A stretch of 64,000 nucleotides of DNA, from NCBI GenBank assembly GCA_013140775.1, contig JABFSA010000040.1, forward strand, positions 5,182-69,181, written 5' to 3'. Positions 11,642 through 25,362 of this stretch are shown piece by piece. Below the pieces are notes generated by a model. The model was not told where the DNA came from. It searched no databases and was given only the letters and a program-made list of their open reading frames with translations. How positions within the stretch are numbered: position 1 is the stretch's first letter; the number at the start of each line of letters is the position of its first letter. A program made the position numbers and the translations under genes. This DNA comes from Acidobacteriota bacterium. GTDB lineage: Bacteria; Acidobacteriota; Vicinamibacteria; Vicinamibacterales; UBA2999.

Positions 11642-12084
11642 TGATTCGCTTCGACCAGCTTCGGGACTATCGCCAGCAGGTGGCGATGGTTGACGGCGCA
11701 TTCGATCCGTTGCACCGCGGCCACATTGAGTACTTCAGAGCGGCCAGCACACTCGAGGTGCCGCTCCTGTGCAATGTGGCGTCTGACGCGTACGTTCGGA
11801 CCAAGCACCAGCCGCTCCTGTCGGAAGATCAGCGTGCGGCCGTGGTGGATGCCATCAGATACATTTCCTACACGCACATCAATCAGTTCGATACCGAAAC
11901 CATTCTCCGGGAGCTGCGTCCCAAGTACTACGTCAAGGGCAAGGACTGGGAAGGCAGGCTACCGGGTGAGCAGGTACGCATCTGCGCCGAGCATGGCATC
12001 GGCGTCGTCTATCTCGATACCGTGCTCGATTCGTCGAGCCGGATTCTCAACGAGTTCCTGTCCGCGAAGCAGAGCACACGATGA
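11638..12084 (+). CDS. Cytidylyltransferase-like small nucleotidyltransferase (TagD / RfaE domain II type)
   Basis: 148 aa. GAFDPLHRGHIEYF carries the HxGH motif. The size and the KGKDW..L region fit the glycerol-3-phosphate cytidylyltransferase family. ATGA overlap with upstream. Confidence 0.75.
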   Translation: MMIRFDQLRDYRQQVAMVDGAFDPLHRGHIEYFRAASTLEVPLLCNVASDAYVRTKHQPLLSEDQRAAVVDAIRYISYTHINQFDTETILRELRPKYYVKGKDWEGRLPGEQVRICAEHGIGVVYLDTVLDSSSRILNEFLSAKQSTR

Positions 12085-12749
12085 ACATTACCGAGTTCGA
12101 GCAGCGAGTTCTCGATCAACGTCCCGTCAGCTCCGGTCACTACGATGCCGAGTACTTCACCGGCGAATGGCGTGATGCCGGCAACAACTACAGCCTGGAG
12201 ACGCGACGCCAGATCGAGGCCAGGAATCCGTTCCTCATCAAAGAGGTCTTTCAGCCGACGAAGGCGCTCGACCTTGGATGCGGGCCAGGCGCGCTCATGC
12301 ACCTGCTCTGGGAGCTTGGTGTAGACATCGATGGTATCGATTTCGCGGAGAGCAGCAAGCAGCTGGCGACGCCACAAGTGCGTGACCGCATCGTCGTGGG
12401 CGAGGTCTACGATCAGACGATCAAGTCAGCCGGAGCCTACGACCTGGTCATCTGCCGGGAAGTGCTCGAGCACCTGACCGTCCTGCAGGTGAAACAGGCT
12501 GTCGCCAACATGGTGCGGTTGTCGTCGAAGTACATCTACGTGACGACGCGCTTCCATCCCAATCCGGCCAGCCTGCTGGATTTCACCACGCAGTTCGACG
12601 TCGATCCATCGCACATCACGCTGTTGAACAAGGACATGCTGCGCCTGATGTTCGTGCTCGAAGGCTGTCGCTCGAGGCCGGATCTCGAGGCACGGATGGA
12701 CTGGGGCAACAAGGGCAGGGTGCTCGTCCTCGAAACCCAGGCTCGATGA
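12081..12749 (+). CDS. Class I SAM-dependent methyltransferase
   Basis: LDLGCGPGALMHLL (motif I) and ICREVLEHL. ATGA overlap with the upstream gene. Confidence 0.8.
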   Translation: MNITEFEQRVLDQRPVSSGHYDAEYFTGEWRDAGNNYSLETRRQIEARNPFLIKEVFQPTKALDLGCGPGALMHLLWELGVDIDGIDFAESSKQLATPQVRDRIVVGEVYDQTIKSAGAYDLVICREVLEHLTVLQVKQAVANMVRLSSKYIYVTTRFHPNPASLLDFTTQFDVDPSHITLLNKDMLRLMFVLEGCRSRPDLEARMDWGNKGRVLVLETQAR

Positions 12750-12756
12750 GTCACGC

Positions 12757-13875
12757 ATGATTCCGCTGGCGGATCTTCGCGAGCAGTATCGCCGCCTGAA
12801 GTCCGAGATCGACCCGGCCATCGCGGCCGTGCTCGAGAATGCGCAATTCGTGCTGGGGCCGGCGGTTGAGAACTTCGAGCGCCAGTTCGCCTCCTATTGC
12901 GGCGTCTCACATGCGATTGGCGTGAACTCCGGCACCAGCGCGTTGCACATCGCGCTGCTGGCAGCCGGGATCGGTCCGGGCGACGAGGTCATCACCGTTC
13001 CCTTTACGTTTGTTGCCACGATCGCCGCCATCGAGTACGCGGGCGCGACGCCGGTGTTCGTGGATATCGAGCAGGACACCTGCACGATGGACCCGTCAAA
13101 GCTGGAGCGAGCTATCACTCCGCGGACGAAGGCGTTGATGCCGGTGCACCTCTTCGGGCACCCGGCTGACATGGATCCGATCGCGGAGATCGCCCGCCGG
13201 CACACGCTCGTCGTCATCGAGGACGCCTGCCAGGCCCATGGAGCCGAGTACAAGGGCCGTCGAGCCGGGTCGATGTCCGAGATCGGGTGCTTCAGTTTCT
13301 ATCCAGGTAAGAACCTGGGTGCTTATGGCGAGGGCGGAGCTGCGGTCACCAACAACGCGCAATACGCCGACACCATGCGGTTGCTCCGCAGCTGGGGCGA
13401 ACGGACCCGATACGAGCATTCGATCAAGGCGTTCAACTACAGGATGGATGGCATCCAGGGAGCGATTCTTGGCGTCAAGATGAAGCACCTGGAACCGTGG
13501 ACCGAAGCCCGGCGGGCACTTGCAGCCACCTACGATCGGCTGCTTGCCGGGAGCCCGGCGTCCCCGCCGAAAGCGCGGCAGGACGTCCGGCACGTGTATC
13601 ACCAGTACGCCGTGCGCCTCGAACAGCGCGACCGCTGGCGTGCCCACCTTGCCGACAGAGGCATTCAGACGGCCGTGCACTATCCGGTGCCGCTTCACCT
13701 CCAGCCCGCCTATCGTGACCTTGGCTACGGCGTCGGAGATTTTCCGGTGGCCGAATCAGTCGCCCGTGAAATTCTCTCGCTGCCGTTCTTTCCTGAGATG
13801 ACCGATCCGCAAGTGCAGGAAGTGGCGGGTGTACTTCGTGCGGGACTTCCGGCAAACGCCGGCAGCGTCGCGTAA
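12757..13875 (+). CDS. DegT/DnrJ/EryC1/StrS family PLP-dependent sugar aminotransferase
   Basis: GVNSGTSALHIAL, FSFYPGKNLGAYGEGGAV (PLP lysine), HVYHQYAV and PVPLHLQPAY. Confidence 0.9.
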   Translation: MIPLADLREQYRRLKSEIDPAIAAVLENAQFVLGPAVENFERQFASYCGVSHAIGVNSGTSALHIALLAAGIGPGDEVITVPFTFVATIAAIEYAGATPVFVDIEQDTCTMDPSKLERAITPRTKALMPVHLFGHPADMDPIAEIARRHTLVVIEDACQAHGAEYKGRRAGSMSEIGCFSFYPGKNLGAYGEGGAAVTNNAQYADTMRLLRSWGERTRYEHSIKAFNYRMDGIQGAILGVKMKHLEPWTEARRALAATYDRLLAGSPASPPKARQDVRHVYHQYAVRLEQRDRWRAHLADRGIQTAVHYPVPLHLQPAYRDLGYGVGDFPVAESVAREILSLPFFPEMTDPQVQEVAGVLRAGLPANAGSVA

Positions 13876-13958
13876 GGGTCCTGATCGGGCTCTAAGCCCA
13901 AAGGGTACAGATAGATGGCAAGATCGTCCGCAGACGTGCGTTACAATACCGTCTCCCG

Positions 13959-14882
13959 ATGATCGACTGCATCGCCGGATATCACCTGAACCCTTGGACG
14001 TGTGGGATCGCCAAGTTCAACACCATCCTCGGGCGGCACCTGTCGCTGCCCGTCGTGGGTATCGGGTCGCCAGATTTGGATCGCTACACGCGCCCCCTGT
14101 TGTCCCTCAAGATGTCGGAGTTCGCGGAGGGCGACGCACACACGCTGGACGCGTGGGTGGCAGAACACACAGGACGGTACGAGCTGTTCCTGCATGCCTG
14201 GGATCGGACGCCGACCGAGGACAGGCTGATCGCGCGCGCCGCCAGAGTGTGCGTCGGGAACCGCGAACTGTTCGAACAACTCGTCCCGACCCGACCCGAT
14301 GTCGTCGAGCTCTTCTGCCCGGGAACGCTGCTCAACCCACAGCGCTTCCAGCGCACGGACCTCTCGGTGTTCACCTTCGGGATGGCACACAAGATCCGGG
14401 TGCCGCTGTATCGCCGGCTTCATCGCCTGCTGGAAGCCACCGGGAAGAGCTATTCGGTCTACGTCTCAACAGCCCTCCACGAAAACACCAGCTTTGACGA
14501 CTCGTTCATCGTCCGGTTCGAGGAACTGCAGGCGATTTTTGGCGAGCACGTCTATTTCATGGGGTACCTGTCAGACACGGCCGTGTTCAATCACATCGTG
14601 GACTGCACGTTTCTCGCCGCCTTCTTTGAGAAGGGGCTTCGGGCAAACAACACCAGCGTGATTGCCGCGATGGAATGCGGGTGCGCCGTGATCACGAACC
14701 TGGACGAGCATTCGCCCAGGGGACTTGCGCACATGAAGAATGTGATCGACATCAACGTCTGCGATCGGCTGCCGGATTTCGACCAGGCCGAAAAGATCGG
14801 TCGTGCGGCGCGCGAGATCACGCAGACAGATTACGGCTGGGATCAACTCGTGGCGCAGCTTCGGCCGGCTGTGCGCGTCTAG
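13959..14882 (+). CDS. Hypothetical protein, divergent GT-B (GT1/GT4-like) C-terminal half
   Basis: 307-aa ORF with coding-like codon bias. FFEKGLRANNTSVIAAMECGCAVITN resembles the E..G....EAM..G.PVI block of GT4 enzymes. The N-terminal half is not recognisable. Confidence 0.55.
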   Translation: MIDCIAGYHLNPWTCGIAKFNTILGRHLSLPVVGIGSPDLDRYTRPLLSLKMSEFAEGDAHTLDAWVAEHTGRYELFLHAWDRTPTEDRLIARAARVCVGNRELFEQLVPTRPDVVELFCPGTLLNPQRFQRTDLSVFTFGMAHKIRVPLYRRLHRLLEATGKSYSVYVSTALHENTSFDDSFIVRFEELQAIFGEHVYFMGYLSDTAVFNHIVDCTFLAAFFEKGLRANNTSVIAAMECGCAVITNLDEHSPRGLAHMKNVIDINVCDRLPDFDQAEKIGRAAREITQTDYGWDQLVAQLRPAVRV

Positions 14883-14892
14883 GAGCTGGCAT

Positions 14893-15969
14893 TTGGCAGG
14901 GACGCTGAGAATCGGAACGCGTGAAATTGGCGACGACACGCCGTGTTACGTCATCGCTGAGATTGGCCATAACCATCAGGGCAGCGTCGAGAAAGCGCGC
15001 GAGCTTTTCCGCGAGGCCAAGCTCGCCGGCGCCGACGCGGTCAAGCTCCAGAAGCGGGATAACCGCGGCCTGTATACCCGCGCCGCCTACGACAAGCCGT
15101 ACGACAACGAGAACAGCTTCGGCGCCACCTACGGTGAGCACCGCGAGTTCCTCGAGTTCGGCCTCTCGCAGTACCGGGAGTTGCAGGCGTATGCCAGGGA
15201 ATTAGGCATCGACTTCTTCGCGACAGCGTTCGACATCTCGAGTGCCGACTTTATCGAGTCGCTCGAAATGCCCGCTTTCAAGATTGCATCGGGCGATGTG
15301 AAGAGCACGCCTCTTCTCGAGCACGTGGCGAGATTCGGCAAGCCGATGATTGTCTCCACCGGAGGGGCGCTCATCGAGGATGTTCAGCGCGCCTACGACA
15401 CGATCATGGCGATCAACCCGCAGCTCAGCCTTCTGCAGTGCACGGCGGGATACCCGGCCGCATTCGAAGAGCTCGACCTGCGTGTGATCTCGGAGTATCG
15501 CGAGAGATTTCCAGGCGCCGTGATTGGTTTTTCAGGCCATGACAGCGGGATCGCGATGCCTCTGGCCGCGTACGTGCTCGGTGCACGGATCGTGGAGAAG
15601 CACTTCACGCTGAACCGGGCCATGAAGGGAACGGATCACGCGTTTTCGCTGGAGCCGGTCGGGCTGAGAAAGATGGTGCGCGATCTGCAGCGGACGCACA
15701 AAGCGCTCGGAGATGGACGTAAGAAGGTGTACGAAAGCGAACGTGCGCCCATCGTGAAGATGGGCAAGAGCCTGGTGCTGGCGCGTGACCTGCCGGCGGG
15801 GCACACCCTGACCGAGAGCGACATTCTCATGAAGTCCCCTGGCGGAGGCATCGCGCCGTACGACCTCTCGAAAGTGCTCGGACGTGTCACGCTGAAGCCA
15901 CTGCGCGCGGATGACTTCCTGTCGTTTGAGATGCTGAGCAAGCCGAGCGCCGAGCTCGCGCGTTCGTGA
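14893..15969 (+). CDS. NeuB-family PEP-condensing ulosonic acid synthase (N-acetylneuraminate synthase-like) with C-terminal SAF domain
   Basis: CYVIAEIGHNHQGS signature and a SAF-like C-terminus (LARDLPAGHTLTESDILMKSPGGGI). Start chosen at TTG 14893, 7 nt after AGGAG (14881-14885) and after the upstream stop. The track ORF begins at 14803. Confidence 0.85.
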   Translation: MAGTLRIGTREIGDDTPCYVIAEIGHNHQGSVEKARELFREAKLAGADAVKLQKRDNRGLYTRAAYDKPYDNENSFGATYGEHREFLEFGLSQYRELQAYARELGIDFFATAFDISSADFIESLEMPAFKIASGDVKSTPLLEHVARFGKPMIVSTGGALIEDVQRAYDTIMAINPQLSLLQCTAGYPAAFEELDLRVISEYRERFPGAVIGFSGHDSGIAMPLAAYVLGARIVEKHFTLNRAMKGTDHAFSLEPVGLRKMVRDLQRTHKALGDGRKKVYESERAPIVKMGKSLVLARDLPAGHTLTESDILMKSPGGGIAPYDLSKVLGRVTLKPLRADDFLSFEMLSKPSAELARS

Positions 15970-16778
15970 CCAGCGCTCTCTTCCGACTCGACAACCAGAC
16001 GGCCGTCGTCACGGGGGCATGCGGCAAGCTCGGTCCGATCTGGGCCGAGGCACTGCTCGATGCCGGGGCAAGTGTCGCTGCGCTGGAATTGGCCGGTGCG
16101 CGCGAGTCCGCCGTTTTTGCCGCCCTGTCCGAGCGTTCAGGAGACCGGCTGCGTCGCTTCGACTGCGATGTGACCAACCGTGCGTCGATTCAGCAGGCAG
16201 CCGATGCCGTTGCGGCGCAGCTGGGCGAGCCGTCGGTTCTCGTCAACAACGCGGGCGTGGATCAGCCTCCAGATTCGGGAGGTAACCGCGCGCCGATCGA
16301 CCAGTTGGCGATCGAGGACTTCCGCCGGATGGTCGAAGTCAATCTGCTCGGCACGTTTCAGATGACGCAGGTCTTTGGCGGCCGAATGGCCGGCGGGCAG
16401 GGCGGCGCCATTATCAACATCGGATCGCTCTACGCCTCCGTGTCGCCGGACCAACGCTTCTACGATCATCTTCCCGGCGATCTCCCGTTCTTGAAGTCTC
16501 CAGCCTACGGCGCGTCCAAAGCGGCCGTCGTGAACATGACGAAGTACTTCTCGACGCTCTGGGGTACACAGGGCGTGCGCGTCAACACCCTGTCTCCCGG
16601 CGGTGTGCTCGCCGGTCAGGACGAGAAGTTCCGGTCGAAGTACGGAGCGCGGGTCCCGCTCGGTCGCATGGCGGAGGCGGACGATCTCAAGGGCCCACTC
16701 GTATTTCTGGCCTCGCGAGCCTCGTCGTATGTCACCGGCTACGAGCTGCGGGTGGACGGAGGCTTTACCGCGTGGTAA
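15966..16778 (+). CDS. Short-chain dehydrogenase/reductase (classical SDR)
   Basis: VVTGACGKLG, NNAG and YGASKAAV (YxxxK). GTGA overlap with the NeuB-like stop. Confidence 0.85.
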   Translation: MTSALFRLDNQTAVVTGACGKLGPIWAEALLDAGASVAALELAGARESAVFAALSERSGDRLRRFDCDVTNRASIQQAADAVAAQLGEPSVLVNNAGVDQPPDSGGNRAPIDQLAIEDFRRMVEVNLLGTFQMTQVFGGRMAGGQGGAIINIGSLYASVSPDQRFYDHLPGDLPFLKSPAYGASKAAVVNMTKYFSTLWGTQGVRVNTLSPGGVLAGQDEKFRSKYGARVPLGRMAEADDLKGPLVFLASRASSYVTGYELRVDGGFTAW

Positions 16779-16786
16779 GCGGCACT

Positions 16787-18259
16787 ATGAGCGGGGTGCA
16801 GATCCCGACCACGATTCCAAACCAGATTGGCGGGCGGACAGCCCCGGCCAGCGATGGACGCACCTTTCTGAAGCGAGACCCTGCCACCGGCGCGGCCTTG
16901 TGTCAGGTCGCTCGATCGAGCGCAGCCGATGTTCGTCTCGCGGTCGAGCTGGCGAAGAAAGCGCAGCCCGACTGGGCGGCGGCCACCGTCGTGAAGAGGG
17001 GCGACATTCTTCGTCAGATTGCGCTGCTCATGCGTGAGCGCCGCGAACTGATCGCCGATCTGGTCGCACGCGAGACGGGAAAGTCGCGCAAGGACGCGCT
17101 GGGCGAAACGGACGCGGCCATCGAGATGGGATTCTTCGTGGCCGGAGAGGGTCGGCGATTCTACGGTCAGACGACGACCAGTGCTGTGCCGAACAAGTCG
17201 GCCATGGTCATTCGACAGCCGCTCGGCGTCGCGGGGCTCATCATCGCCGCCAACACTCCTATTGCGAATGTCGCCTGGAAGGCGTTTCCGGCCCTGCTCT
17301 GCGGCAATGCGGCGATTCTCAAAGCATCGGAAGACACGCCGTTGTCCGCCTGGATCTTCGGCGAGATCGCGCGCGAAGCCGGTGTTCCGGAAGGCGTCTA
17401 CTCGACGATCCACGGCTTCGGTGAGGAGGCGGGAGCGCCACTCGTCGAGCATCCGGACGTGGCGGTGGTCAGCTTCACGGGCTCATGCTCGGTCGGTCGC
17501 TGGATCGCGGCTACGGTTGGTCAGCGGCTCGGAAAGGTTTGCCTCGAGTTGGGCGGCAAGAACCCGCTCATCGTGTGTGACGACGCCGACCTGCAGAATG
17601 CCGTGACGTGGACGCTCGGCTCGGCGTTCAGTAATGCGGGTCAGCGCTGCGCGTCGGGCAGCCGCATCATCGTGTTCGATGCTGTCTACGATCGCTTCAC
17701 GCAGATGCTCGTGGAAGCCACCACGAAGCTTGCAGTCGGGACCAGCGACGCCGACGCCTACGGCCCTGTCATCAATGAAGAGCAGATGACAGCGATGCTC
17801 GCGTCCGTGCAGCAGGCGAAGGACGCAGGTGCCGTGATTCTCACGGGTGGTCATCGCCTGACAGGTGGAGCCTATGGCGACGGGTACTTCGTGGCGCCCA
17901 CGATCCTCGCGCACGTCGGGCCGAACGACGAGATTTCCCGCACCGAGCTCTTCGGGCCAATCACCTGTCTGTATCGCGTGAAGAACTTTGAAGAGGCCAT
18001 CACGCTGGCGAACGACGCGCCATTCGGTCTCACGGCGTCGATTCACACCCAGAACCTCCACCGAGCCATGACCTTCGTGGGTCGGATTCAGTCGGGCGTT
18101 GCCGTAGTCAACGGTGGGACGTACGGCAGCGAGCCGCACATGCCGTTTGGCGGTCTGAAGGACTCGGGGAACGGCTGGCGGGAAGCGGGCACACAGGCCC
18201 TGGACGTGTATTCGGACTTGAAGACCGTCTATATCAATCACAACCCGTTGAGCGTCTAA
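16787..18259 (+). CDS. NAD(P)-dependent aldehyde dehydrogenase family protein
   Basis: ELGGKNP and GQRCASGSR (catalytic Cys) with the PFGG..SG C-terminal block. ATG 16787 preferred; 16772 is also possible. Confidence 0.9.
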   Translation: MSGVQIPTTIPNQIGGRTAPASDGRTFLKRDPATGAALCQVARSSAADVRLAVELAKKAQPDWAAATVVKRGDILRQIALLMRERRELIADLVARETGKSRKDALGETDAAIEMGFFVAGEGRRFYGQTTTSAVPNKSAMVIRQPLGVAGLIIAANTPIANVAWKAFPALLCGNAAILKASEDTPLSAWIFGEIAREAGVPEGVYSTIHGFGEEAGAPLVEHPDVAVVSFTGSCSVGRWIAATVGQRLGKVCLELGGKNPLIVCDDADLQNAVTWTLGSAFSNAGQRCASGSRIIVFDAVYDRFTQMLVEATTKLAVGTSDADAYGPVINEEQMTAMLASVQQAKDAGAVILTGGHRLTGGAYGDGYFVAPTILAHVGPNDEISRTELFGPITCLYRVKNFEEAITLANDAPFGLTASIHTQNLHRAMTFVGRIQSGVAVVNGGTYGSEPHMPFGGLKDSGNGWREAGTQALDVYSDLKTVYINHNPLSV

Positions 18260-18263
18260 AACG

Positions 18264-18400
18264 TGTCGTTCACTCTTCCACGTTCTTTCTTCTCGGTGCG
18301 TGTTCAGGTTCACCGAACCCGAACCCGAACTCCGAACCTTGAACCGAGAACCGAACCTGAACGCGAACCAAGAACAAAGAACCCAGAAGAGTGAACGACA
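18264..18400. repeat. 137-nt imperfect palindrome (48-nt arms) around a core of degenerate CCGAAC-type hexamers
   Basis: Arms are 18264-18311 and 18353-18400. The outer 15 bp are perfect (tgtcgttcactcttc / gaagagtgaacgaca). About 41 of 48 arm positions are complementary by hand count. The core is accgaacccgaacccgaactccgaaccttgaaccgagaacc. Confidence 0.8.
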
Positions 18401-19191
18401 AGGTTCAAGTTCGCGTGAACGCCAGAAATCCATCCGTCGTCGCCTTGATTCCCGCGCGCCAGGGCTCCAAACGCGTCCCAGGCAAGAACGTGCGCCTTCT
18501 CGGCGGACACCCTGTTCTTGCGTACACGATCGCGCCAGCACTCGCGAGCGGGCTGTTCGATGCCGTGATCGTCTCTACTGATTCAGAGGAGACGGCCGAG
18601 ATCGCCAGGCACTACGGTGCCGAGGTGCCGTTTCTTCGTCCCGCCGAGCTGGCGGGCGACAAGTCTCCCGACATCGAGTGGCTGGAGTACACGCTGGGGA
18701 GGCTGAGAGACGAAGGACGCCTATGGGATTGCTTCAGTCTCCTGCGCCCAACGAGCCCGTTCCGCACGGCCGGCACGCTCCGGCGAGCGTGGGAGCAATT
18801 CGTCTCGCAGACAGGTGTTGATTCGCTGCGCGCCGTTGAGCGGTGCACGCAGCATCCCGGCAAGATGTGGGTGGTGAACGGCGATCGGATGACGCCGCTG
18901 CTGCAGACGCCCGAAGGCGTGACACCCTGGCACAGCACGCCCTATCAGGCGTTGCCGCCGGTCTACGTGCAGAACGCGTCACTCGAGATTGCCTGGACCA
19001 GATTGATCTTTCACGGACGTACCATTGCGGGAGACGTCCTCGTGCCGTTTGTCACCGAGGGCTTCGAGGGATTCGACATCAACGACCCGCATGACTGGAT
19101 TGTGGCGGAACACTTACTGGCGGATGGCCAGGCCGTGCTGCCGCAGGTTTCGCAGGTTCCGTACGGAGCGACATGGGCGAACAGCAATTAG
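18391..19191 (+). CDS. Acylneuraminate cytidylyltransferase family protein (second CMP-ulosonic acid synthetase)
   Basis: ALIPARQGSKRVPGKNVRLLGGHPVLAYTI and LLRPTSPFR. GTG start at 18391 lies inside the right arm of the palindrome. An alternative GTG is at 18415. Confidence 0.85.
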   Translation: MNDKVQVRVNARNPSVVALIPARQGSKRVPGKNVRLLGGHPVLAYTIAPALASGLFDAVIVSTDSEETAEIARHYGAEVPFLRPAELAGDKSPDIEWLEYTLGRLRDEGRLWDCFSLLRPTSPFRTAGTLRRAWEQFVSQTGVDSLRAVERCTQHPGKMWVVNGDRMTPLLQTPEGVTPWHSTPYQALPPVYVQNASLEIAWTRLIFHGRTIAGDVLVPFVTEGFEGFDINDPHDWIVAEHLLADGQAVLPQVSQVPYGATWANSN

Positions 19192-21143
19192 ATCAGGTCA
19201 CGAGCGACGATCTCGTGTATGTGCCGTCGGCTGAGTTCCGCCGGTTGCGGGATGCGGGGTTGCCCGCCACCCAGACAGCTCAGGCGTTTGCGGCTCTCGC
19301 GCGAATCAACACGCTCTACATGATTGCGCGGGCATGGTCGGGCCACATCGGGACGAGCTTCAGCTCGCTCGAGATCATGAGCTGGCTCTTTCTCAATGAG
19401 ATCCGCGATCTCGACAAGGGACCGGCGGCCTGCGACATTTTCTTCTCGTCGAAGGGGCACGATGCGCCCGCGCTCTACTCGGTCCTGATCGGACTCGGCC
19501 TGCTGCCTGAGGACAAGGCGGATCACCTTCGTCGTCTGCACGGCCTCCCTGGTCATCCGCACGTCGAGACTCCGTATATTCAGGCCAACACCGGTTCGCT
19601 TGGGATGGGCATCTCGAAGGCCAAGGGTATGGCGATTGCCAACCGCCTGAACGGCCTGCCGCGACGCATCTTCGTGCTCACCGGAGACGGTGAGTTGCAG
19701 GAAGGGCAGTTCTGGGAATCACTGGCGTCGGCCGCGAGCCGGCAGCTCAGCGAGATCGTCGTGATTGTGGATCACAACAAGATCCAGTCCGACACCTGGG
19801 TCGAGCAGGTGAGCGATCTCGGCGATGTCGAAGCCAAGGTTCGCGCGTTCGGCTGGCATGTGGCCCGATGCGACGGGCACGACCTCGAGGCGCTCGAACG
19901 GACCTTGCGCAGTCTCGACCGCATCACCGATCGACCGAAGCTCATTGTGGCCGACACGGTGAAGGGGAAGGGCGTGTCGTTCATGGAAGGGCCGGCGCTG
20001 GTGGCCGGAGCCTTGTATGCGTATCACTCCGGCGCTCCCACCGAAGCCGAGTACGCGAACGGATCGAAGGAGCTGCTTACGTCGGCTGCAGGTCTCTTCA
20101 CGGCCGGTGGTCTGGGTCAGGTGGCCACGAGACCTGGCCGACGACCGGAGCGCCGCGAGCCGCGTGATACCCAGAATCTGATCAGTGCCTACAGCGACGC
20201 GCTGCTCTCGCAGGCCGATCGCGACTCACGAATCGTCGCGCTCGACGCGGACCTTGTGAAGGACTGCGGTCTCGTGCCGTTCGCGAAGAAGTACCCGGAA
20301 CGGTTCGTCGAGTGTGGCATCGCCGAGCAGGACATGGTGTCGATGGCGTGCGGCCTGGCACACCGCGGCGCACTGCCGATCGTGCATTCTTTCGCGTGCT
20401 TCCTCTCGGCAAGGCCCAACGAGCAGATCTACAACCAATGCAGTGAGGGCTCCAAGGTGATCTATGTGGGATCGCTCGCCGGCCTTCTGCCCGGTGGCCC
20501 TGGCCACTCGCATCAGTCCGTGCGAGACATCAGCGCGCTGGCATCCGTTCCACACCTCGTGATCGCGGAACCTGCCGTGAACGACGAGGTGCACGCCCTG
20601 CTCGACTATCTCGTCGCGAAAGCGCCTGAGAGCTCGTATCTGCGTCTTGTCTCCGTCAAGTGGCCCGTCCCGTTCGCCTATCCGGCCGGGCAGCGCGTGC
20701 AGCCAGGACAGGGCTGGGTCGTGCGTGAGGGCCAGGACCTGGTGGTGTTCGGTTACGGTCCGTGGCTGTTGTCCAACGCCTGGCACGCGGCGGAGGAACT
20801 GCAGCGGAGCGCCGGGATCACGACACATCTCGTCAATCTTCCGTGGCTCAATCGCGTGGATCCCGTCTGGTTGCGGCAGACGATCGGTGACAGACGCGCG
20901 GTGGTCCTTCTCGACAACCACTACGTCCATGGCGGCCAGGGTGACATGTTGGGCGCTGCCATCGCCGGCCTGGGCCTGGCACCGGCTCGGCGCGTGACGA
21001 AGATTGGCGTAACGGAATTGCCCGAGTGCGGGACCAACGACGAAGTGCTCGCGTACCACGGGCTGGATATCCCATCACTCACCACAATTTTCAAAGCCGC
21101 CGTCTCTCAGCAGAAGACAGGCGTGATCCCGCAACCCGCATGA
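19173..21143 (+). CDS. Transketolase-family ThDP enzyme (fused N- and C-terminal halves, divergent)
   Basis: GHIGTSFSSLEI, GDGELQEGQFWE (ThDP/Mg motif), IAEQDMVSMA and GHSHQSVRDIS. Clearly diverged from the canonical copy at 52876. Confidence 0.85.
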   Translation: MGEQQLDQVTSDDLVYVPSAEFRRLRDAGLPATQTAQAFAALARINTLYMIARAWSGHIGTSFSSLEIMSWLFLNEIRDLDKGPAACDIFFSSKGHDAPALYSVLIGLGLLPEDKADHLRRLHGLPGHPHVETPYIQANTGSLGMGISKAKGMAIANRLNGLPRRIFVLTGDGELQEGQFWESLASAASRQLSEIVVIVDHNKIQSDTWVEQVSDLGDVEAKVRAFGWHVARCDGHDLEALERTLRSLDRITDRPKLIVADTVKGKGVSFMEGPALVAGALYAYHSGAPTEAEYANGSKELLTSAAGLFTAGGLGQVATRPGRRPERREPRDTQNLISAYSDALLSQADRDSRIVALDADLVKDCGLVPFAKKYPERFVECGIAEQDMVSMACGLAHRGALPIVHSFACFLSARPNEQIYNQCSEGSKVIYVGSLAGLLPGGPGHSHQSVRDISALASVPHLVIAEPAVNDEVHALLDYLVAKAPESSYLRLVSVKWPVPFAYPAGQRVQPGQGWVVREGQDLVVFGYGPWLLSNAWHAAEELQRSAGITTHLVNLPWLNRVDPVWLRQTIGDRRAVVLLDNHYVHGGQGDMLGAAIAGLGLAPARRVTKIGVTELPECGTNDEVLAYHGLDIPSLTTIFKAAVSQQKTGVIPQPA

Positions 21144-21826
21144 CAGTTCTTTTCTGGGACATCGACGGCACGCTTCTCACTACCGCCAAAGCCGGCGTCT
21201 TCGCCTGGGAGGACGCCGTACGCGAGGTGGTCGGTGGCGAGTTCGAGCTGGCGAAGATGAGAATCGCTGGAATGACGGACTATCAGATTGCCGTCAAGAC
21301 CTTCGAGATGCTCGGTGTCGAGGTGAACGACGACACGCTTCGACGCTTCGTCAATCGATACGGCGAGCTGCTGCCCACGAGCCTTCCCCGCAAGCAGGGG
21401 CGCGTGATGCCGAACGTCCGCGAAATCCTCGAGCACCTTCAGCAGCGGCCTGATGTGCAGTCGTTCCTGCTCACGGGCAACACTCGCGCGGGAGCCACGG
21501 CCAAGCTGACGCACTACAACCTGATGCACTTCTTTCCTGACGGCGCCTTCGCAGAAGACACCGGCGATCGCGCATCCATTGCGAGGCGAGCCGTCGAGCT
21601 GGCCAGGCAATACGGCCCCGTGGCCGATGATCGTCTGTTCGTCATCGGTGACACCCCGCACGACGTGGCGTGCGCGACTGCCATCAATGCCAGAACGATT
21701 GCCGTTGCGACCGGAGGCTACGCGATCGAGGAACTGAAGGCCTGTGATCCCTGGCGAGTGTTCAGCGAACTTCCAGAGCCTGACGCGTTCATGAATCTCA
21801 TCGACGCCGGAGGCCGCGTGGCGTGA
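21140..21826 (+). CDS. HAD-superfamily phosphatase (capped, PGP/beta-PGM-like)
   Basis: Start at ATG 21140 (ATGA overlap). FWDIDGTLL (DxDGT), LLTGNT and VIGDTPHDV motifs. Confidence 0.85.
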   Translation: MTVLFWDIDGTLLTTAKAGVFAWEDAVREVVGGEFELAKMRIAGMTDYQIAVKTFEMLGVEVNDDTLRRFVNRYGELLPTSLPRKQGRVMPNVREILEHLQQRPDVQSFLLTGNTRAGATAKLTHYNLMHFFPDGAFAEDTGDRASIARRAVELARQYGPVADDRLFVIGDTPHDVACATAINARTIAVATGGYAIEELKACDPWRVFSELPEPDAFMNLIDAGGRVA

Positions 21827-23547
21827 GGCGTGGCATCAGGCGACTGCCGACACTCTGGCGCGCGACGCGGCTGGCGCGCCGGTGGTATCACGCGCGGTTT
21901 GGCGCATATCCGGACTGGCAGGTCCAATCAGCTGCGGACTCGGCATTGTGGGCGTCTGCAAGAAGCGCGGCGAAGGGTGGCCCCAGAGTCCTGATGGCCA
22001 CGACCATCGGATCGTACGCGCACGGGATCACGCTCGAGAGCGCCGTGGCGGCCGCGCTCACCTTCAGGGGCGCCGAGGTGCACGCCTTGCTCTGCGACGG
22101 CGCGATGACCGCGTGCGCGGAGTGTGAGGCATCCCTCTACACAAACGTCAACACATTCGTCGAGCAGGGACCTCAGCGGGATCTCTGCCAGGACTGCACA
22201 TGGCCCGCCGAGCGTGTCTACGAAGAGCTCGGACTGAAGGTTCATCGGTACAGCGACTGGCTCAGCCGCGAAGATCGTCTCGAAGCCAGGCGTCTGTCGA
22301 TCGCGCACCCATTCAACGACATCCGATCGCTGACGATCGATGGCCTGGCTGTCGGTGACCATGCCCACGCCGGGGCCTTGCGCTACTTTGCCACCGGCTC
22401 CCTCGACGGCGAACCAGCGGCCGAACCGGTTCTTCGCCGCTATCTCGAGTCGGCGCTGCTGACGGCGTTTGCCACCCGCCGACTGTTCAGAGGCATCGGA
22501 TTCACGTCAACGGTTCTCACGCACGGCATCTATGTGCCCTGGGGCATCGTTGGGGAGGTCGCCCGCCAGGAAGGCGTGCACGTGTCCACGTGGAATGTGG
22601 CGTACCGCAAGCGCCGTTTCATCTTCAGCCACGACGACACGTATCACCACACGCTCATGACGGAACCGCGGCATCACTGGGAGCACACGCCCCTGTCGCC
22701 TGGCCAGGATCGCGAACTCACCAAGTATCTTGCGAGCCGCAGGGAAGGTCTGTTCGACTGGATTGTCTTCCACCGTGCCCGTCGTCAAGACCCTGAAGAC
22801 ATCGCTCGACGCATCGGCCTGGATCCCGCGAAGCCCGCAATTGGCCTGCTGACCAATGTCACCTGGGACGCGCAACTGCACTATCCGGCGAACGCATTCC
22901 CGAACATCGTGGAGTGGCTGGTCCAGACGGTGCAGTACTTCGCCACCCGCCCCGATCTGCAGTTACTGATTCGAGTGCACCCGGCAGAGATCAGCGGGTT
23001 TCCGCCCTCCCGTCAGCCGATTCTCGAGGAGCTGCGCAAGCACGTTCCCAATCTGTCGTCCAATATCATTGTCGTGCCTCCGGAAAGCGACATGAGCACG
23101 TATGCACTCATGTCGTTGTGCAACGCCGCGATCATCTACGGCACCAAGATGGGCGTGGAGCTCACGAGCATCGGCCTGCCGGTCATAGTCGCGGGCGAGG
23201 CCTGGATTCGCAACAAGGGGCTGACGCACGATGCCAGTTCGCCGGCCGAGTATTTCCGGATTCTCGAGAAGCTGCCGTTCCGCGACCGTCTCGGGCCCTC
23301 GCAGCTGGCGCGCGCGCGTCAGTATGCGTACCACTTCTTCTTCAATCGGATGATTCCGTTGCCCTTCATCGCCCCGAAGGCCGGGTATCCGATCTATCGC
23401 CTCAAACTGGATCGCCTCCAGCAGTTGCTGCCGGGTGCATCGACTGGCCTCGACACGATTTGTGCGGGCATCCTGACTCGCCAACCTTTCGTCATGCACG
23501 CTTCCGAGCCGGCTCCGGTCGAGCTCGCAAGCGTCATGGGCGGCTGA
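21823..23547 (+). CDS. Capsule polysaccharide biosynthesis (KpsS/KpsC, Capsule_synth)-like protein with an N-terminal Cys cluster
   Basis: 574 aa. LIRVHPAE contains an HP motif typical of CMP-sugar-dependent GT-B transferases. Cys cluster: LLCDGAMTACAECE...LCQDC. Family assignment is from memory of similar capsule biosynthesis annotations. GTGA overlap upstream. Confidence 0.5.
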   Translation: MRRGIRRLPTLWRATRLARRWYHARFGAYPDWQVQSAADSALWASARSAAKGGPRVLMATTIGSYAHGITLESAVAAALTFRGAEVHALLCDGAMTACAECEASLYTNVNTFVEQGPQRDLCQDCTWPAERVYEELGLKVHRYSDWLSREDRLEARRLSIAHPFNDIRSLTIDGLAVGDHAHAGALRYFATGSLDGEPAAEPVLRRYLESALLTAFATRRLFRGIGFTSTVLTHGIYVPWGIVGEVARQEGVHVSTWNVAYRKRRFIFSHDDTYHHTLMTEPRHHWEHTPLSPGQDRELTKYLASRREGLFDWIVFHRARRQDPEDIARRIGLDPAKPAIGLLTNVTWDAQLHYPANAFPNIVEWLVQTVQYFATRPDLQLLIRVHPAEISGFPPSRQPILEELRKHVPNLSSNIIVVPPESDMSTYALMSLCNAAIIYGTKMGVELTSIGLPVIVAGEAWIRNKGLTHDASSPAEYFRILEKLPFRDRLGPSQLARARQYAYHFFFNRMIPLPFIAPKAGYPIYRLKLDRLQQLLPGASTGLDTICAGILTRQPFVMHASEPAPVELASVMGG

Positions 23548-23553
23548 ACACTG

Positions 23554-25362
23554 TTGCAGCCTTTCTTCGTGGCGGTGCTTGCCGTCGCTGCGCTCTGCAG
23601 CCTTGCAGGCGGGGCCGTTGTCCGTCGCGTGGCCCGAGCCAGTGGCGCTGTCGTGCCGCCTCGGCCCGATCGCTGGCATACGACACCGACGCCGACGATG
23701 GGTGGGATCGCGATCGCCGCGGGTACCTTGATCGCGTTTGCCATGATCGCGCTTCGCCCGGATCTCGTGGGACCGCCGGCGGACTGGTTGCCTGTTCCGC
23801 TCGCGGCCTTCGCGATGTTCGTGGTGGGCGTGCTCGACGACCGGCTGCAACTGTCGCCGCTTGCGAAGCTGGTGTCCTCGCTGGCTATTGGCGCATTCCT
23901 CGTGTTCGCACTGGCAGGCGGAGGACCCGAGGACGCGTTGCCTTCGGCGTATACGCTCGTCGCCACCGTGTGGTTTGCCGGTATTTGCCACGCGATGAAC
24001 CTGCTCGACAACATGGACGGGCTGGCCGCGGGCATCGGACTGATTGCCGCCGTATTTCTGACGTGGCTGCTCCCGGGCGTGCTTGGGCCAACGCTGGTTG
24101 TGCTGCTTCTCGCACTCGCCGGAGCGCTGGCAGGATTCCTCTACTGGAACCGCAATCGCGCCCGGCTGTTCATGGGGGATTGCGGCAGCTTGTTCATCGG
24201 GGCACTGCTGGGCGCCGCCTCGCTTGTGCCGGTCTACAACGCGCCGATGGCTTTTATCAGCCCCGCGGTCATCGTGGTGTTGATTCTGATCGTCCCTATC
24301 TTTGACACCGCGTTCGTGCTGGTGCTGCGGCGGCTCGCTGGTCTCAAGGCGACCAAGGGAGGCACCGATCACGTGTCCCACCGGCTCGTCTCACTCGGTT
24401 TCTCCGAACGCAGCGCGGTCAGGACGCTGTACATGCTCGGCGCCGTGGGAGGCGGAACAGCGTGGTTTCTGTTGAGTGGGCAGGGCGCGGAGCCCATGCT
24501 GCCCCTCGTGGCGGCCTTCGGTGTGCTCGTCGTCTTGATGGGCATCTACCTCGCGCGCGTTCCCGCGTACGACGCCGAAGATTTTGTCGCGCTCCAGAAG
24601 TCGTCGTTTGCGCCGTTTCTCAAGGATCTGGCGTTCAAGTGGCATGCCGCGGAAGTCATGCTGGATTTCGTCCTGATTGCCGTGTGCTACTACCTGGCGT
24701 ACCGGCTCAGATTCGAGGGTGAAGGTTTCGACAACTTCCTGCCGTACTTCACGGCGTCTCTTCCAGTCGTGCTGGGCTGCAAACTCGCGGGTATCTACGT
24801 TTCGGGTCTGTATCAGCGATCGTGGGATACGTTTGGCCTGCGCGATCTCACAGCCGTCGTGCGGGGTGTCGGCATGGGCTCGCTGTTCTCGATTCTGACG
24901 ATCGCGTATCTGTACCGCTTCGAGGGCTTCTCCCGAGTCGTATTCCTGCTCGACGCTTTGTTGCTCGGAATGGCTATCGTTGCGACCAGGGCGTCATTCC
25001 GCGCAATGAGCCTCGTGGCGGCGGTACGGAACAAGCGCAGCCGCCGAGTGCTCGTGTATGGTGCCGGCCAGTTCGGCCAGACGCTCGTGCGTGAGATGCG
25101 GGCCAACTCGCGGTGGAACATGAATCCGATTGCCTTCATCGACGACGACCCCGGCAAGGTACGTCGCTGGATCTCGGGTGTTCAGGTTCGCGGTTCGCTC
25201 GACGATCTCGAGGCGACCATGCGCCGCTATTCCGTCGATGAGGTCGTCTTGAGCAGCCCGGCAATCAACGGAGCCGTCGAGCACAGGATTCGGGAGATCT
25301 GTTCGCGGATGGAGCGGCCGGTTCGGCGTCTGCGCATGGAAATCCGTGACCTCGACGCGTGA
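23554..25362 (+). CDS. WecA/MraY-family polyprenyl-phosphate HexNAc-1-phosphate transferase fused to a CapD/WbaP-N-terminal-like TM plus Rossmann module
   Basis: HTTPTPTMGGIAI, VLDDRLQLSPLAKL, NLLDNMDGLAAG and MGDCGSLFIG. The C-terminal part has extra TM segments, then VLVYGAGQFGQTLV...IAFIDDDPGKV...VQVRG. Confidence 0.8.
   Translation: MQPFFVAVLAVAALCSLAGGAVVRRVARASGAVVPPRPDRWHTTPTPTMGGIAIAAGTLIAFAMIALRPDLVGPPADWLPVPLAAFAMFVVGVLDDRLQLSPLAKLVSSLAIGAFLVFALAGGGPEDALPSAYTLVATVWFAGICHAMNLLDNMDGLAAGIGLIAAVFLTWLLPGVLGPTLVVLLLALAGALAGFLYWNRNRARLFMGDCGSLFIGALLGAASLVPVYNAPMAFISPAVIVVLILIVPIFDTAFVLVLRRLAGLKATKGGTDHVSHRLVSLGFSERSAVRTLYMLGAVGGGTAWFLLSGQGAEPMLPLVAAFGVLVVLMGIYLARVPAYDAEDFVALQKSSFAPFLKDLAFKWHAAEVMLDFVLIAVCYYLAYRLRFEGEGFDNFLPYFTASLPVVLGCKLAGIYVSGLYQRSWDTFGLRDLTAVVRGVGMGSLFSILTIAYLYRFEGFSRVVFLLDALLLGMAIVATRASFRAMSLVAAVRNKRSRRVLVYGAGQFGQTLVREMRANSRWNMNPIAFIDDDPGKVRRWISGVQVRGSLDDLEATMRRYSVDEVVLSSPAINGAVEHRIREICSRMERPVRRLRMEIRDLDA

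Follow-up and report, generated by a model that had tools for sequence, protein, structure and literature searches.

A cross-phylum gene cassette joining a NeuB-like synthase to a divergent transketolase suggests an as yet undescribed pathway to an unusual acidic sugar of the cell surface

Ulosonic acids such as Kdo and the sialic, pseudaminic and legionaminic acids influence the surfaces of bacteria and how these are recognized, and all of the routes to them that are known to us combine a synthase with sugar-nucleotide or phosphate chemistry. A locus in a 64,000-nucleotide stretch of an acidobacterial genome (hereafter the window) raises the question of what kind of sugar is made where a NeuB-like synthase is encoded together with a classical SDR oxidoreductase, an aldehyde dehydrogenase (ALDH), a NeuA-like cytidylyltransferase, a ThDP-dependent transketolase-family enzyme and a HAD phosphatase.

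Examination of the window bears out the six-gene module that a preliminary description had recognized: all six genes are found on the forward strand at positions 14893-21826, mostly with overlapping stops and starts (Table 1). The synthase gene, which has a TTG start preceded by AGGAG, overlaps that of the SDR by 4 nt; the SDR and ALDH genes overlap by 7 nt and the cytidylyltransferase and transketolase genes by 19 nt. The HAD_2 gene truly begins with the ATG at 21140, which overlaps the transketolase stop by 4 nt as ATGA. Between the ALDH and cytidylyltransferase genes lies a gap of 131 nt containing a (CCGAAC)n repeat, a pattern that occurs once in the window, with 0 matches expected from shuffled sequences. 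A sequence scan found no promoter-like sites, and terminator-like sites were rarer than in shuffled sequence. While the six genes belong to the module as described, the boundary set at the HAD gene falls one gene short, as the next gene, which overlaps it by 4 nt and encodes a KpsC-like protein, is also a member.

Table 1. Features of the locus, in window coordinates
Feature	Coordinates	Strand	Basis
RfaE-II/TagD-like nucleotidyltransferase	11638-12084	+	Pfam, NCBIfam
SAM methyltransferase	12081-12749	+	Pfam, NCBIfam
DegT aminotransferase, PseC-like	12757-13875	+	Pfam, NCBIfam
307-aa protein without assignment	13959-14882	+	Pfam, NCBIfam
NeuB-family ulosonic acid synthase with C-terminal SAF/AFP domain, 358 aa	14893-15969	+	PF03102, PF08666
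Classical SDR oxidoreductase, 270 aa	15966-16778	+	adh_short_C2, 148 bits; NNAG and Y-x3-K motifs
Aldehyde dehydrogenase (ALDH), 495 aa	16772-18259	+	PF00171, 500 bits; ELGGKNP and GQRCASGS catalytic motifs
(CCGAAC) hexanucleotide repeat, about nine copies	18313-18369		in ALDH-cytidylyltransferase spacer
CMP-ulosonic acid synthetase, NeuA/PseF-like cytidylyltransferase (CTP_transf_3), 266 aa	18391-19191	+	PF02348
Transketolase-family ThDP enzyme, 656 aa	19173-21143	+	all three transketolase domains
HAD_2-type phosphatase, 228 aa	21140-21826	+	HAD_2, HAD and Hydrolase_like matches; DIDGT and GDTPHD motifs
KpsC/KpsS-like glycosyltransferase, 574 aa	21823-23547	+	weak PF05159 matches; Foldseek
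Downstream polysaccharide assembly genes, same operon	23554-28374	+	profile matches

With 261.8 bits against PF03102 (cut-off 22.1) and 42.4 bits against PF08666 (cut-off 21), the synthase is, by its profile matches, a member of the NeuB/sialic acid synthase superfamily. It scores below both the NeuB (TIGR03569, 292.4 versus 399.65) and the PseI (TIGR03586, 234 versus 340.25) equivalog models and forms an orthologous clade of its own, whose members share 82-97% identity in Vicinamibacterales and 53-69% in other phyla; its closest solved structure is that of Bacillus subtilis SpsE (1vli). The cytidylyltransferase (PF02348, 71.7 bits) displays the N-terminal nucleotide-binding motif IPARQGSKRVPGKN and has NeuA structures (9ftb, 1eyr) as solved relatives, and it too remains below its equivalog, PseF (130.6 bits versus a cut-off of 205.7). 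Indeed, none of the six gene products reaches the NCBIfam cut-off for a characterized enzyme. Thus, the earlier claim that the classical partners are absent holds at the level of curated models, with matches to NeuB, PseI, PseF and the transketolase model NF004559 all being sub-cut-off.

Relatives of these genes are numerous, with at least 597 confirmed matches to the transketolase in a genome scan and at least 565 to the synthase in a metagenome scan. Gene neighborhoods were compared in the 64 loci that were found via the transketolase with enough flank, and reciprocally in 20 metagenome loci found via NeuB, in both cases among the matches listed; these samples are biased by sampling and phylogenetically non-independent, and include many MAGs with possible frameshifts. 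Upstream of the transketolase and on the same strand, the SDR, the ALDH and the cytidylyltransferase are each encoded in 57 of the 64 loci, NeuB in 49 and the complete NeuB-SDR-ALDH trio in 46. Conversely, the NeuB-derived loci contain the transketolase in 17, the ALDH and the cytidylyltransferase in 18 each and the SDR in 16 of 20 cases. The loci found via the transketolase span at least ten phyla, with hosts including Acidobacteriota, Gemmatimonadales, Nitrospirota, Chloroflexota, Proteobacteria, Myxococcota, Planctomycetota, Verrucomicrobiota and Obscuribacterales. Gene order and strand are repeated across phyla, and in nearly every locus the SDR and ALDH genes are flanked by those for NeuB and the cytidylyltransferase. 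The cassette genes are hence not chance neighbors, and the survey is positive in both directions for the functional link of transketolase, SDR and ALDH to the synthase that had been postulated from the window.

The most constant members are NeuB, the transketolase and the cytidylyltransferase. The SDR is missing from some loci (L095, L096, L098, L109, L130 and L140) and the ALDH from others (L053, L058, L079 and L082), so that the steps proposed below for these enzymes would need substitutes there; the Streptomyces locus L082 has a class-III aminotransferase in place of the ALDH, and a SAR202 locus encodes a Zn-ADH/GFO fusion as a variant aldehyde consumer. Two Moorena loci retain only the cytidylyltransferase, transketolase and HAD_2 genes, NeuB not being found within about 5-10 kb. 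Two apparent fusions of the cytidylyltransferase to the transketolase (P0233, P0250) are joined by low-complexity linkers and are likely frameshift artefacts; they were dropped as Rosetta-stone evidence.

The preliminary description had also compared the locus with routes that proceed through phosphorylated sugars. In the Kdn-9-phosphate route of Bacteroides thetaiotaomicron a Kdn-9-P synthase is followed by a Kdn-9-P phosphatase, and like this and the animal Neu5Ac-9-P route the cassette couples its NeuB-family synthase to a HAD phosphatase of its own and to a CMP-transferase. The window phosphatase differs in being of the HAD_2 type (PDB 2hcf, 3.5e-30), with only weak matches to the beta-phosphoglucomutase and phosphoglycolate phosphatase models, and does not belong to the KdsC/Kdn-9-P phosphatase (HAD-IIIA, C0) family. 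In other phyla, however, a gene of 168-190 aa adjoining NeuB matches the models of KdsC (114 bits) and of the Kdn-9-P phosphatase (92 bits). Across the 64 loci, 31 carry the HAD_2 gene, located after the transketolase, 15 the KdsC type beside NeuB, none both, and 18 neither nearby; one phosphatase type or the other is thus encoded in 46. This pattern shows a non-orthologous displacement at the phosphatase step, and the mutual exclusivity of the two types supports a phosphorylated route, which is now likely. Accordingly placed in the pathway, the window HAD_2 protein is proposed to be a ulosonate-phosphate phosphatase. Given the additional conserved SDR, ALDH and transketolase-like members, which set the cassette apart from the Kdn-9-P and Neu5Ac-9-P routes, the end product would not be plain Kdn.

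The affinities of the SDR and the ALDH suggest how it might differ. The best NCBIfam matches of the SDR, all below cut-off, are D-mannonate oxidoreductase, gluconate 5-dehydrogenase, the GolD/DthD family and KduD, enzymes whose site of oxidation is in every case the carbon adjoining a CH2OH end group in a polyol or sugar acid. Those of the ALDH, likewise below cut-off, are the 2,5-dioxovalerate and alpha-ketoglutaric semialdehyde dehydrogenases, followed at lower scores by glyceraldehyde and lactaldehyde dehydrogenases; the substrates of the nearest families are 2-keto-3-deoxy semialdehydes. On the strength of these family-level matches we propose that the SDR is a dehydrogenase of the ulosonic acid acting on its penultimate carbon, and that the ALDH turns an aldehyde at the chain end into a carboxylate. 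Oxidation first at that carbon and then of an aldehyde to an acid would give a shortened dicarboxylic sugar, and nothing points to the higher-carbon product that had been anticipated.

The transketolase, too, falls short of its equivalogs, scoring 387.6 against NF004559 (cut-off 488) and 131.5 against TIGR00232 (cut-off 682); the window protein matches human transketolase with 209 bits and representatives of its own subfamily with 480-720 bits. H37, H77, H110, D155, N185, H258 and E366 (human numbering), which we take to be the ThDP- and metal-binding and catalytic residues, recur in 25-26 of the 26 subfamily members, whereas R318, S345, H416, R474 and D424 are replaced across the subfamily by I/V, D, L, S and P, respectively; the first four of these are presumably the sugar-phosphate-binding residues of the human enzyme. 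Judged by its alignment, it is a distinct subfamily that has kept the cofactor-binding and catalytic residues and lost the canonical sugar-phosphate site. A fusion to an FkbM sugar methyltransferase occurs in one member, in line with a tailoring role. A DXS-like or 2-keto-acid decarboxylase role was rejected: the N-terminal domain is of the transketolase type (112 bits versus 46 for the DXS N-terminal domain), the histidines holding the donor C1-OH are conserved in the subfamily, and with decarboxylation of the ulosonic acid the anomeric centre needed by the CMP-transferase would be lost.

Loss of the phosphate-binding residues argues against the transketolase as the supplier of an unusual sugar phosphate, the role first suggested for it. 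In a pathway of that kind, the transketolase would act first to make an unusual aldose or ketose phosphate, which NeuB would condense with PEP and the HAD enzyme dephosphorylate, with the SDR and ALDH converting a terminal CH2OH to COOH or adjusting the redox state before CMP-activation. The constancy of NeuB, transketolase and cytidylyltransferase, and the SDR-less and ALDH-less variants, would agree with a core of this type and optional tailoring, and the phosphatase would be integral to it. We nevertheless consider it unlikely: every canonical phosphate-binding residue is lost in the subfamily; standard donors would by our reasoning yield only E4P, R5P and GAP, which are already in the cell; and the nearest SDR families act on secondary rather than primary hydroxyls. 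Moreover, a ketose product would need an isomerase, and clustering of the locus ORFs, a minority of whose families were Pfam-scanned, reveals no conserved isomerase or kinase to feed NeuB.

Together, the co-conservation of the synthase with the SDR, ALDH, transketolase and cytidylyltransferase across phyla supports the notion of a non-canonical ulosonic acid module, and we tentatively suggest, at somewhat short of an even chance, that the cassette is the core of a widespread, uncharacterized pathway whose product, a 3-deoxy-2-ulosonic acid modified in its chain and activated with CMP, is destined for a surface polysaccharide. The order of steps, substrates and product that we infer are as follows. 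The synthase would join PEP to an aldose phosphate drawn from central metabolism, most simply a hexose 6-phosphate, for instance Man-6-P, and the terminal phosphate would be removed by the HAD phosphatase (HAD_2 in the window, the KdsC/Kdn-9-P-phosphatase type elsewhere). The SDR might then oxidize the penultimate hydroxyl to give a terminal ketol (-CO-CH2OH), which the transketolase-like enzyme could take as donor, removing the terminal two carbons to leave an aldehyde. Oxidation of the latter by the ALDH would yield a 3-deoxy-2-ulosaric acid (a heptulosaric acid if the start is C9), to be converted to its CMP-sugar by the NeuA-like enzyme and transferred by the KpsC-like protein. Read from C9, 8-keto-Kdn has the D-threo (3S,4R) configuration needed in transketolase donors. 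Somewhat less probable is the proposition that a transketolase-family enzyme serves here as a sugar-tailoring C-C lyase, in a pathway that would be the first known to make a CMP-activated 3-deoxy-hept-2-ulosaric acid. Dha itself was rejected as the product on stereochemical reasoning, as truncation of a Kdn-derived sugar would give the L-arabino rather than the D-lyxo isomer. Rhizobiaceae are reported to contain Dha; a plasmid search recovered, besides one Streptomyces record, only ordinary split transketolases of about 33% identity, including those of Rhizobium and Sinorhizobium, and thus offers no link to these bacteria. A full-text literature search, which largely excluded subscription journals, returned no description of a NeuB-transketolase-ALDH cassette or of CMP-Dha.

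The last step is suggested by the 574-aa protein, whose gene is present in 44 loci. It barely exceeds the PF05159 cut-off (20.7 versus 20 bits), and weak matches to this family occur in 17 of 19 members of its own. As PDB searches with the single sequence and with the family profile gave no meaningful match, its connection to KpsC is, besides PF05159, made solely by fold comparison: the AlphaFold model, predicted with database homologues (pLDDT 80), has as its best PDB match in Foldseek the KpsC beta-Kdo transferase 6mgb (E 1.4e-6, TM 0.32/0.53), followed by the KpsC structures 6mgc, 6mgd, 8fux and 8fuw. Unlike the KpsC/KpsS enzymes, it is about 250 residues longer and has a Cys-rich N-terminal region (C91, C98, C122 and C125) that is invariant in its family. 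Comparisons with hhalign against an upstream 569-aa paralogue and a family of ~520 aa from alphaproteobacterial loci showed no informative similarity. We propose from the modelled fold that it is the transferase for the CMP-activated sugar; such an enzyme would fit a CMP-linked 2-ulosonic acid donor. The operon continues with genes for a WecA/MraY-type phosphoglycosyl transferase with a CoA_binding_3 domain, a GT4-family (Glycos_transf_1) glycosyltransferase and two GT2 glycosyltransferases. Upstream, the accessory genes at 11638-14882 are lineage-specific, occurring only in Acidobacteriota loci; most loci from other phyla lack them, which places them outside the conserved core. A dehydratase-like SDR is also encoded upstream in the window.

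It is rather improbable that the functions are split, with NeuB, the phosphatase and the cytidylyltransferase making an ordinary Kdn-like sugar, and the transketolase, SDR and ALDH a separate small substituent, for instance glycolyl, glyceroyl or, to donate a C2 unit, hydroxypyruvate, that decorates the sugar or the polymer. The Moorena loci, in which the cytidylyltransferase, transketolase and HAD_2 occur without NeuB, SDR and ALDH, would accord with such a division, as would the lower-scoring resemblance of the ALDH to glyceraldehyde and lactaldehyde dehydrogenases and the precedent of tetrahydroisoquinoline antibiotic pathways, where glycolyl units are made by transketolase-type enzymes. 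Against it, the SDR and ALDH genes almost always sit between those of NeuB and the cytidylyltransferase, the recurrent locus ORF families include no conserved acyltransferase, ligase or carrier protein, and a C2-extension product would be a ketose, unusable by NeuB. That this is a standard locus for Neu5Ac, legionaminic or pseudaminic acid, with the transketolase, ALDH, SDR and HAD genes as unrelated neighbors, is very improbable, as the upstream DegT aminotransferase, dehydratase-like SDR and methyltransferase that give it a superficially Pse/Leg-like appearance are restricted to Acidobacteriota while the NeuB-SDR-ALDH-cytidylyltransferase-transketolase set is conserved across phyla, NeuB, PseI, PseC and PseF all score below equivalog cut-offs, homologues of PseH, PseG and NeuC were not found in the window operon, and the co-occurrence analysis contradicts it.

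The proposed chain-shortening route has partial parallels among known systems. It shares with the pseudaminic and legionaminic acid pathways a NeuB-family synthase, a PseF-like cytidylyltransferase and, in the window, a PseC-like aminotransferase; however, this aminotransferase is missing from most related loci, equivalents of PseB, PseH, PseG and LegG are not conserved, and of the full tailoring set the acetyltransferase and NDP-sugar hydrolase were not detected in the window operon. In the Shewanella Kdo8N pathway the iron-dependent alcohol dehydrogenase KdnB oxidizes a primary alcohol directly and the aminotransferase KdnA follows, with no C-C cleavage and no ThDP enzyme. There, as proposed here, a 3-deoxy-2-ulosonic acid is modified at its far end via an aldehyde, and the Streptomyces variant of the cassette includes an aminotransferase; unlike that pathway, the cassette links an SDR, a transketolase-like enzyme and an ALDH. 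Precedent for the cleavage itself comes from the sulfo-TK pathway, where 6-deoxy-6-sulfofructose transketolase acts on a non-phosphorylated anionic sugar (PMC9594981, PMC11659671), so that in both cases a transketolase-family enzyme would shorten a sugar that is not a phosphate ester by two carbons. The likeness drawn here is one of chemistry; the sulfo-TK pathway is catabolic and its split-chain enzyme acts on a sulfonated ketohexose, while the cassette enzyme is fused and would be biosynthetic and linked to a CMP-sugar.

Dha is a member of the 3-deoxy-hept-2-ulosaric acid class. Its biosynthesis and activated form are listed as unknown for plant RG-II (PMC3355719, PMC12168206). Should the product of the cassette be a ulosaric acid, it would provide concrete candidate enzymes for Dha-type sugars, whose biosynthesis is still unsolved. 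From the Streptomyces variant, it would seem that a secondary-metabolite cluster employs the chemistry of the cassette as well. More generally, a cassette that combines a ThDP enzyme with an SDR and an ALDH would bring a new reaction type to the ulosonic acid field. The cassette thus speaks for a pathway, not yet described, to an unusual acidic sugar at the cell surface, and would indicate that such a sugar has gone unrecognized in the abundant soil Acidobacteriota and in many other phyla.

The preliminary description of a six-gene module stands, with coordinates and families confirmed, given its gene content, the intact catalytic motifs of all six proteins, and scores that in no case reach the cut-off of a curated characterised enzyme. 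Five of the six junctions are overlaps of 4-19 nt, and the real start of the HAD_2 gene is the ATG at 21140, where it shares an ATGA with the transketolase stop. Only the cytidylyltransferase gene is set apart from its upstream neighbour, by a 131-nt spacer that forms the sole sizeable intergenic gap of the module and carries about nine copies of a hexanucleotide in a pattern found once in the window. A consensus scan gave no promoter-like site, and its terminator-like sites were fewer than in shuffled sequence.

Features of the module and its surroundings (window coordinates), with scores against curated models
Feature	Position	Strand	Sequence features	Model: score (cut-off)
Second CTP_transf_3 (NeuA/KdsB-like) gene	3-671	+	cut by window edge	
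Six consecutive ORFs, 348-569 aa	668-8489	+	no Pfam or NCBIfam match	
One paralogous family of these	1795-3504; 3492-5177	+		
Other paralogous family	668-1798; 5165-6211; 5926-7299	+		
NeuB+SAF synthase (family assignment)	14893-15969	+	TTG start 3' of AGGAG	NeuB: 292 (400); PseI: 234 (340)
Classical SDR	15966-16778	+	NNAG, Y-x3-K	mannonate oxidoreductase: 162 (281)
ALDH	16772-18259	+	ELGGKNP, GQRCASGS	2,5-dioxovalerate dehydrogenase: 419 (750)
Hexanucleotide repeat	18313-18369		CCGAAC	
CTP_transf_3 cytidylyltransferase	18391-19191	+	IPARQGSKR	PseF: 131 (206)
Three-domain transketolase	19173-21143	+	GDGE...N	NF004559: 388 (488)
HAD_2 hydrolase	21140-21826	+	DIDGT, GDTPHD	
KpsC-like gene (574 aa)	21823-23547	+		
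Initiating transferase	23554-25362	+	WecA/MraY-type GT4 domain (residues 81-225) and CoA_binding_3 (418-570)	

The first 28 kb of the window form a single long array of forward-strand genes, and G+C is uniform (61-65%) throughout the window. By its gene content the region is a predicted surface-polysaccharide locus. Given the second CTP_transf_3 gene, it encodes two CMP-ulosonic acid synthetase homologues by sequence. Homologues of the six upstream ORFs, which comprise two paralogous families, are present in related Acidobacteriota loci. Also upstream of the module are genes for an extended-SDR epimerase/dehydratase, a 658-aa protein of no assigned family, an RfaE-II/TagD-like nucleotidyltransferase, a methyltransferase, a DegT aminotransferase and an unknown 307-aa protein. 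Downstream lie the 574-aa protein, a WecA/MraY-type phosphoglycosyl transferase, a GT4-family (Glycos_transf_1) and two GT2 glycosyltransferases, and further on RmlD-like and dehydratase-like genes, a UDP-glucose dehydrogenase and a Wzy_C protein. An unusual fusion is seen in the initiating transferase, whose CoA_binding_3 region is typical of WbaP/PglB-type sugar transferases. Soil metagenomes and MAGs labelled Vicinamibacterales or Acidobacteria are the sources of the closest NeuB homologues (82-97% identity), and the contigs found through them have the gene order of the window. In one MAG (CAWHBF01) two contigs each carry a full locus, with transketolases 86% and 89% identical to that of the window; this pair could reflect duplication or strain heterogeneity.

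Sequence comparison places the transketolase in a subfamily of its own. Used as query against 1.84 billion representative proteins, the window's transketolase recovered about 30 full-length clusters at 480-720 bits, and the best solved relative, human transketolase, scores only 209 bits. An alignment of 26 subfamily members was scanned against one genome per GTDB species, and the best 80 of at least 597 confirmed matches were kept as loci. Hosts among these 80 include Acidobacteriota, Gemmatimonadales, Nitrospirota, Chloroflexaceae, SAR202, Dehalococcoidia, Desulfovibrionaceae, Gamma-, Beta- and Alphaproteobacteria (including Rickettsiales), Myxococcota, Planctomycetota, Verrucomicrobiota, Obscuribacterales and Moorena. 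In tblastn searches with the window proteins almost all loci showed the same gene order and strand as the window, with identities outside Acidobacteriota of 53-69% for NeuB, 37-62% for the SDR, 49-70% for the ALDH, 54-69% for the cytidylyltransferase and 51-59% for the transketolase. In 64 of these best 80 loci the contig reaches 5.6 kb or more upstream of the transketolase; among the 64, the SDR, ALDH and cytidylyltransferase each occur in 57, NeuB in 49, and NeuB, SDR and ALDH together in 46. Metagenome contigs were also scanned from the opposite side, with a NeuB-orthologue alignment headed by a gammaproteobacterial sequence. Here 20 loci extended 6.5 kb or more past the 3' end of NeuB, and these encode the transketolase in 17, the ALDH and the cytidylyltransferase in 18 each and the SDR in 16. 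Both samples are conditioned on the query, the lineages are not independent and many records are MAGs. Given this co-occurrence from both the transketolase and the NeuB sides, the proposed linkage of the synthase to the transketolase and ALDH is upheld, and these genes are not merely unrelated neighbours.

The 574-aa protein encoded 3' of the HAD gene recurs in 44 loci. Searches of PDB sequences with it gave no match, and 17 of 19 family members show weak matches to PF05159 (KpsC/KpsS family). When an AlphaFold model (pLDDT 80, pTM 0.83) was compared with PDB folds, 6mgb, a KpsC beta-Kdo transferase, ranked first (E 1.4e-6), and 6mgc, 6mgd, 8fux and 8fuw were among the top ten. The protein is most likely the glycosyltransferase acting with the CMP-sugar of the module. 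In alphaproteobacterial and planctomycete loci its place is taken by a different family of about 520 aa, also with weak PF05159 matches.

Loci outside Acidobacteriota contain, immediately upstream of NeuB or separating it from the SDR, a 168-190 aa ORF of the KdsC/YrbI HAD-IIIA family (KdsC model, 114 bits; Kdn-9-P phosphatase model, 92 bits). Among 64 informative loci, defined by orthologous NeuB and transketolase genes on one strand with enough flank, the HAD_2 type lies directly 3' of the transketolase in 31 and the KdsC type beside NeuB in 15, with both types in none and neither nearby in 18. We read the two types as a probable non-orthologous displacement of a single step. Their mutual exclusivity implies, by analogy with the Kdn-9-P and Neu5Ac-9-P routes, that the NeuB product would carry a terminal phosphate, which supports the phosphorylated route suggested earlier.

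The transketolase had initially been proposed to supply an unusual sugar phosphate to the synthase. We mapped the 26 aligned subfamily members onto human transketolase (human numbering), whose residue roles we take to be those of the human structure. The cofactor and catalytic residues H37, H77, H110, D155, N185, H258, E366, F389 and F392 are kept in 21-26 of the 26. R318, S345, H416 and R474, which presumably bind the substrate phosphate, are replaced by I/V, D, L and S, respectively, and D424, which presumably reads the acceptor hydroxyl, by P; the conservation list of the 26 members reveals no evident compensating basic residue for the lost phosphate site. A transketolase dedicated to making sugar phosphates should, judging from these positions, have retained that site, so that the supplier role is disfavoured. 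Precursor supply also faces a logical problem. The only aldoses that a transketolase can make from standard donors are E4P, R5P and GAP, which are always available, and NeuB could use a ketose product only after the action of an isomerase; clustering of the locus ORFs detected no conserved isomerase. A tailoring role fits a 900-aa subfamily transketolase, P0122 of the representative-protein search, with some 250 additional C-terminal residues, read by eye as an FkbM-type methyltransferase, and the stand-alone FkbM genes recurring in three loci (L034, L058, L109).

Among curated families the SDR comes closest to D-mannonate oxidoreductase, gluconate 5-dehydrogenase, GolD/DthD and KduD, all of which, in sugar acids or polyols, oxidise the carbon adjoining a terminal CH2OH to give a terminal ketol. 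The ALDH comes closest to 2,5-dioxovalerate and alpha-ketoglutaric semialdehyde dehydrogenases, families which oxidise the aldehyde end of 2-keto-3-deoxy acids. Such family-level likenesses are suggestive, not diagnostic. Given that a transketolase donor requires precisely a terminal ketol, we propose that the SDR would act before the transketolase. The synthase would form an ulosonic acid, to be dephosphorylated by the phosphatase and oxidised by the SDR to the penultimate ketone; the transketolase would then take off the terminal C2 unit to leave an aldehyde, which the ALDH would convert to a carboxylate, drawing the reversible cleavage forward, before CMP activation and transfer by the KpsC-like protein. 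By our own stereochemical reasoning, the D-threo configuration required of transketolase donors is present in 8-keto-Kdn when the chain is read from C9. If the pathway starts from a C9 sugar such as Kdn, it would end in a pyranosidic 3-deoxy-hept-2-ulosaric acid; by the same reasoning Kdn would lead to the L-arabino isomer and not to Dha. A precedent exists in the sulfo-TK pathway, where a transketolase shortens a non-phosphorylated anionic sugar (PMC9594981, PMC11659671).

Variants with other potential aldehyde consumers fit the proposed logic. In Streptomyces sp. NBC_01237 (L082; NZ_CP108509.1, 6580-24313) NeuB, SDR and transketolase genes are followed by RmlD-like, HAD_2 and class-III aminotransferase genes and LuxR and SARP regulators, with no ALDH or cytidylyltransferase present. 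The trio looks like part of a secondary-metabolite cluster, its neighbours being hydroxyphenylglycine-type genes (HmaS-like dioxygenase, FMN-dependent dehydrogenase, aminotransferase), with an AMP-binding enzyme and an O-methyltransferase nearby. A SAR202 locus has a Zn-ADH/GFO fusion 3' of the transketolase. Running counter to the model are six loci with NeuB, ALDH, cytidylyltransferase and transketolase but no SDR (L109 examined in detail) and four without the ALDH. The 18 informative loci devoid of a nearby phosphatase fit it poorly, as does Moorena bouillonii (L064, 8769-13132), in which cytidylyltransferase, transketolase and HAD_2 genes stand alone between unrelated neighbours, polyphosphate kinase and Ni-SOD among them, with NeuB, SDR and ALDH absent within 10 kb. 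The same three genes occur in a second Moorena locus (L059) on a shorter contig with about 5 kb upstream of the transketolase. Variant architectures in several alphaproteobacterial, planctomycete and Desulfovibrionaceae hosts (L045, L056, L062, L066, L035) have a family of about 300 aa beside a low-identity cytidylyltransferase; the one member scanned, from L045, is DHDPS/N-acetylneuraminate-lyase-like (PF00701). These loci also carry several copies of the family of about 520 aa. In three Acidobacteriota MAGs (L008, L013, L065) the ALDH gene directly follows the unknown 307-aa gene, NeuB and SDR being missing at this position through true loss or assembly error, and the ALDH, cytidylyltransferase, transketolase, HAD and KpsC-like genes are retained.

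In its first steps the module resembles the Kdn-9-P route, in its last steps Kdo/KpsC systems, and it has three conserved extra enzymes found in none of the described ulosonic-acid pathways. Its proteins fall outside the NeuB, PseI, PseF, PseC and transketolase equivalogs, and full-text searches of the accessible literature found no description of such a cassette. We consider it very probable that the cassette is conserved and uncharacterised, makes a CMP-ulosonic acid through a phosphorylated intermediate and includes a non-canonical transketolase; the specific chain-shortening mechanism is offered tentatively, its chances being somewhat short of even. Russa et al. (1991, as cited in PMC5713287) reported the ulosaric acid Dha from the LPS core of Rhizobiaceae, and reviews still give its biosynthesis and activated form as unknown (PMC3355719, PMC12168206). 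If true, the transketolase-mediated truncation would be a reaction new for sugar biosynthesis.
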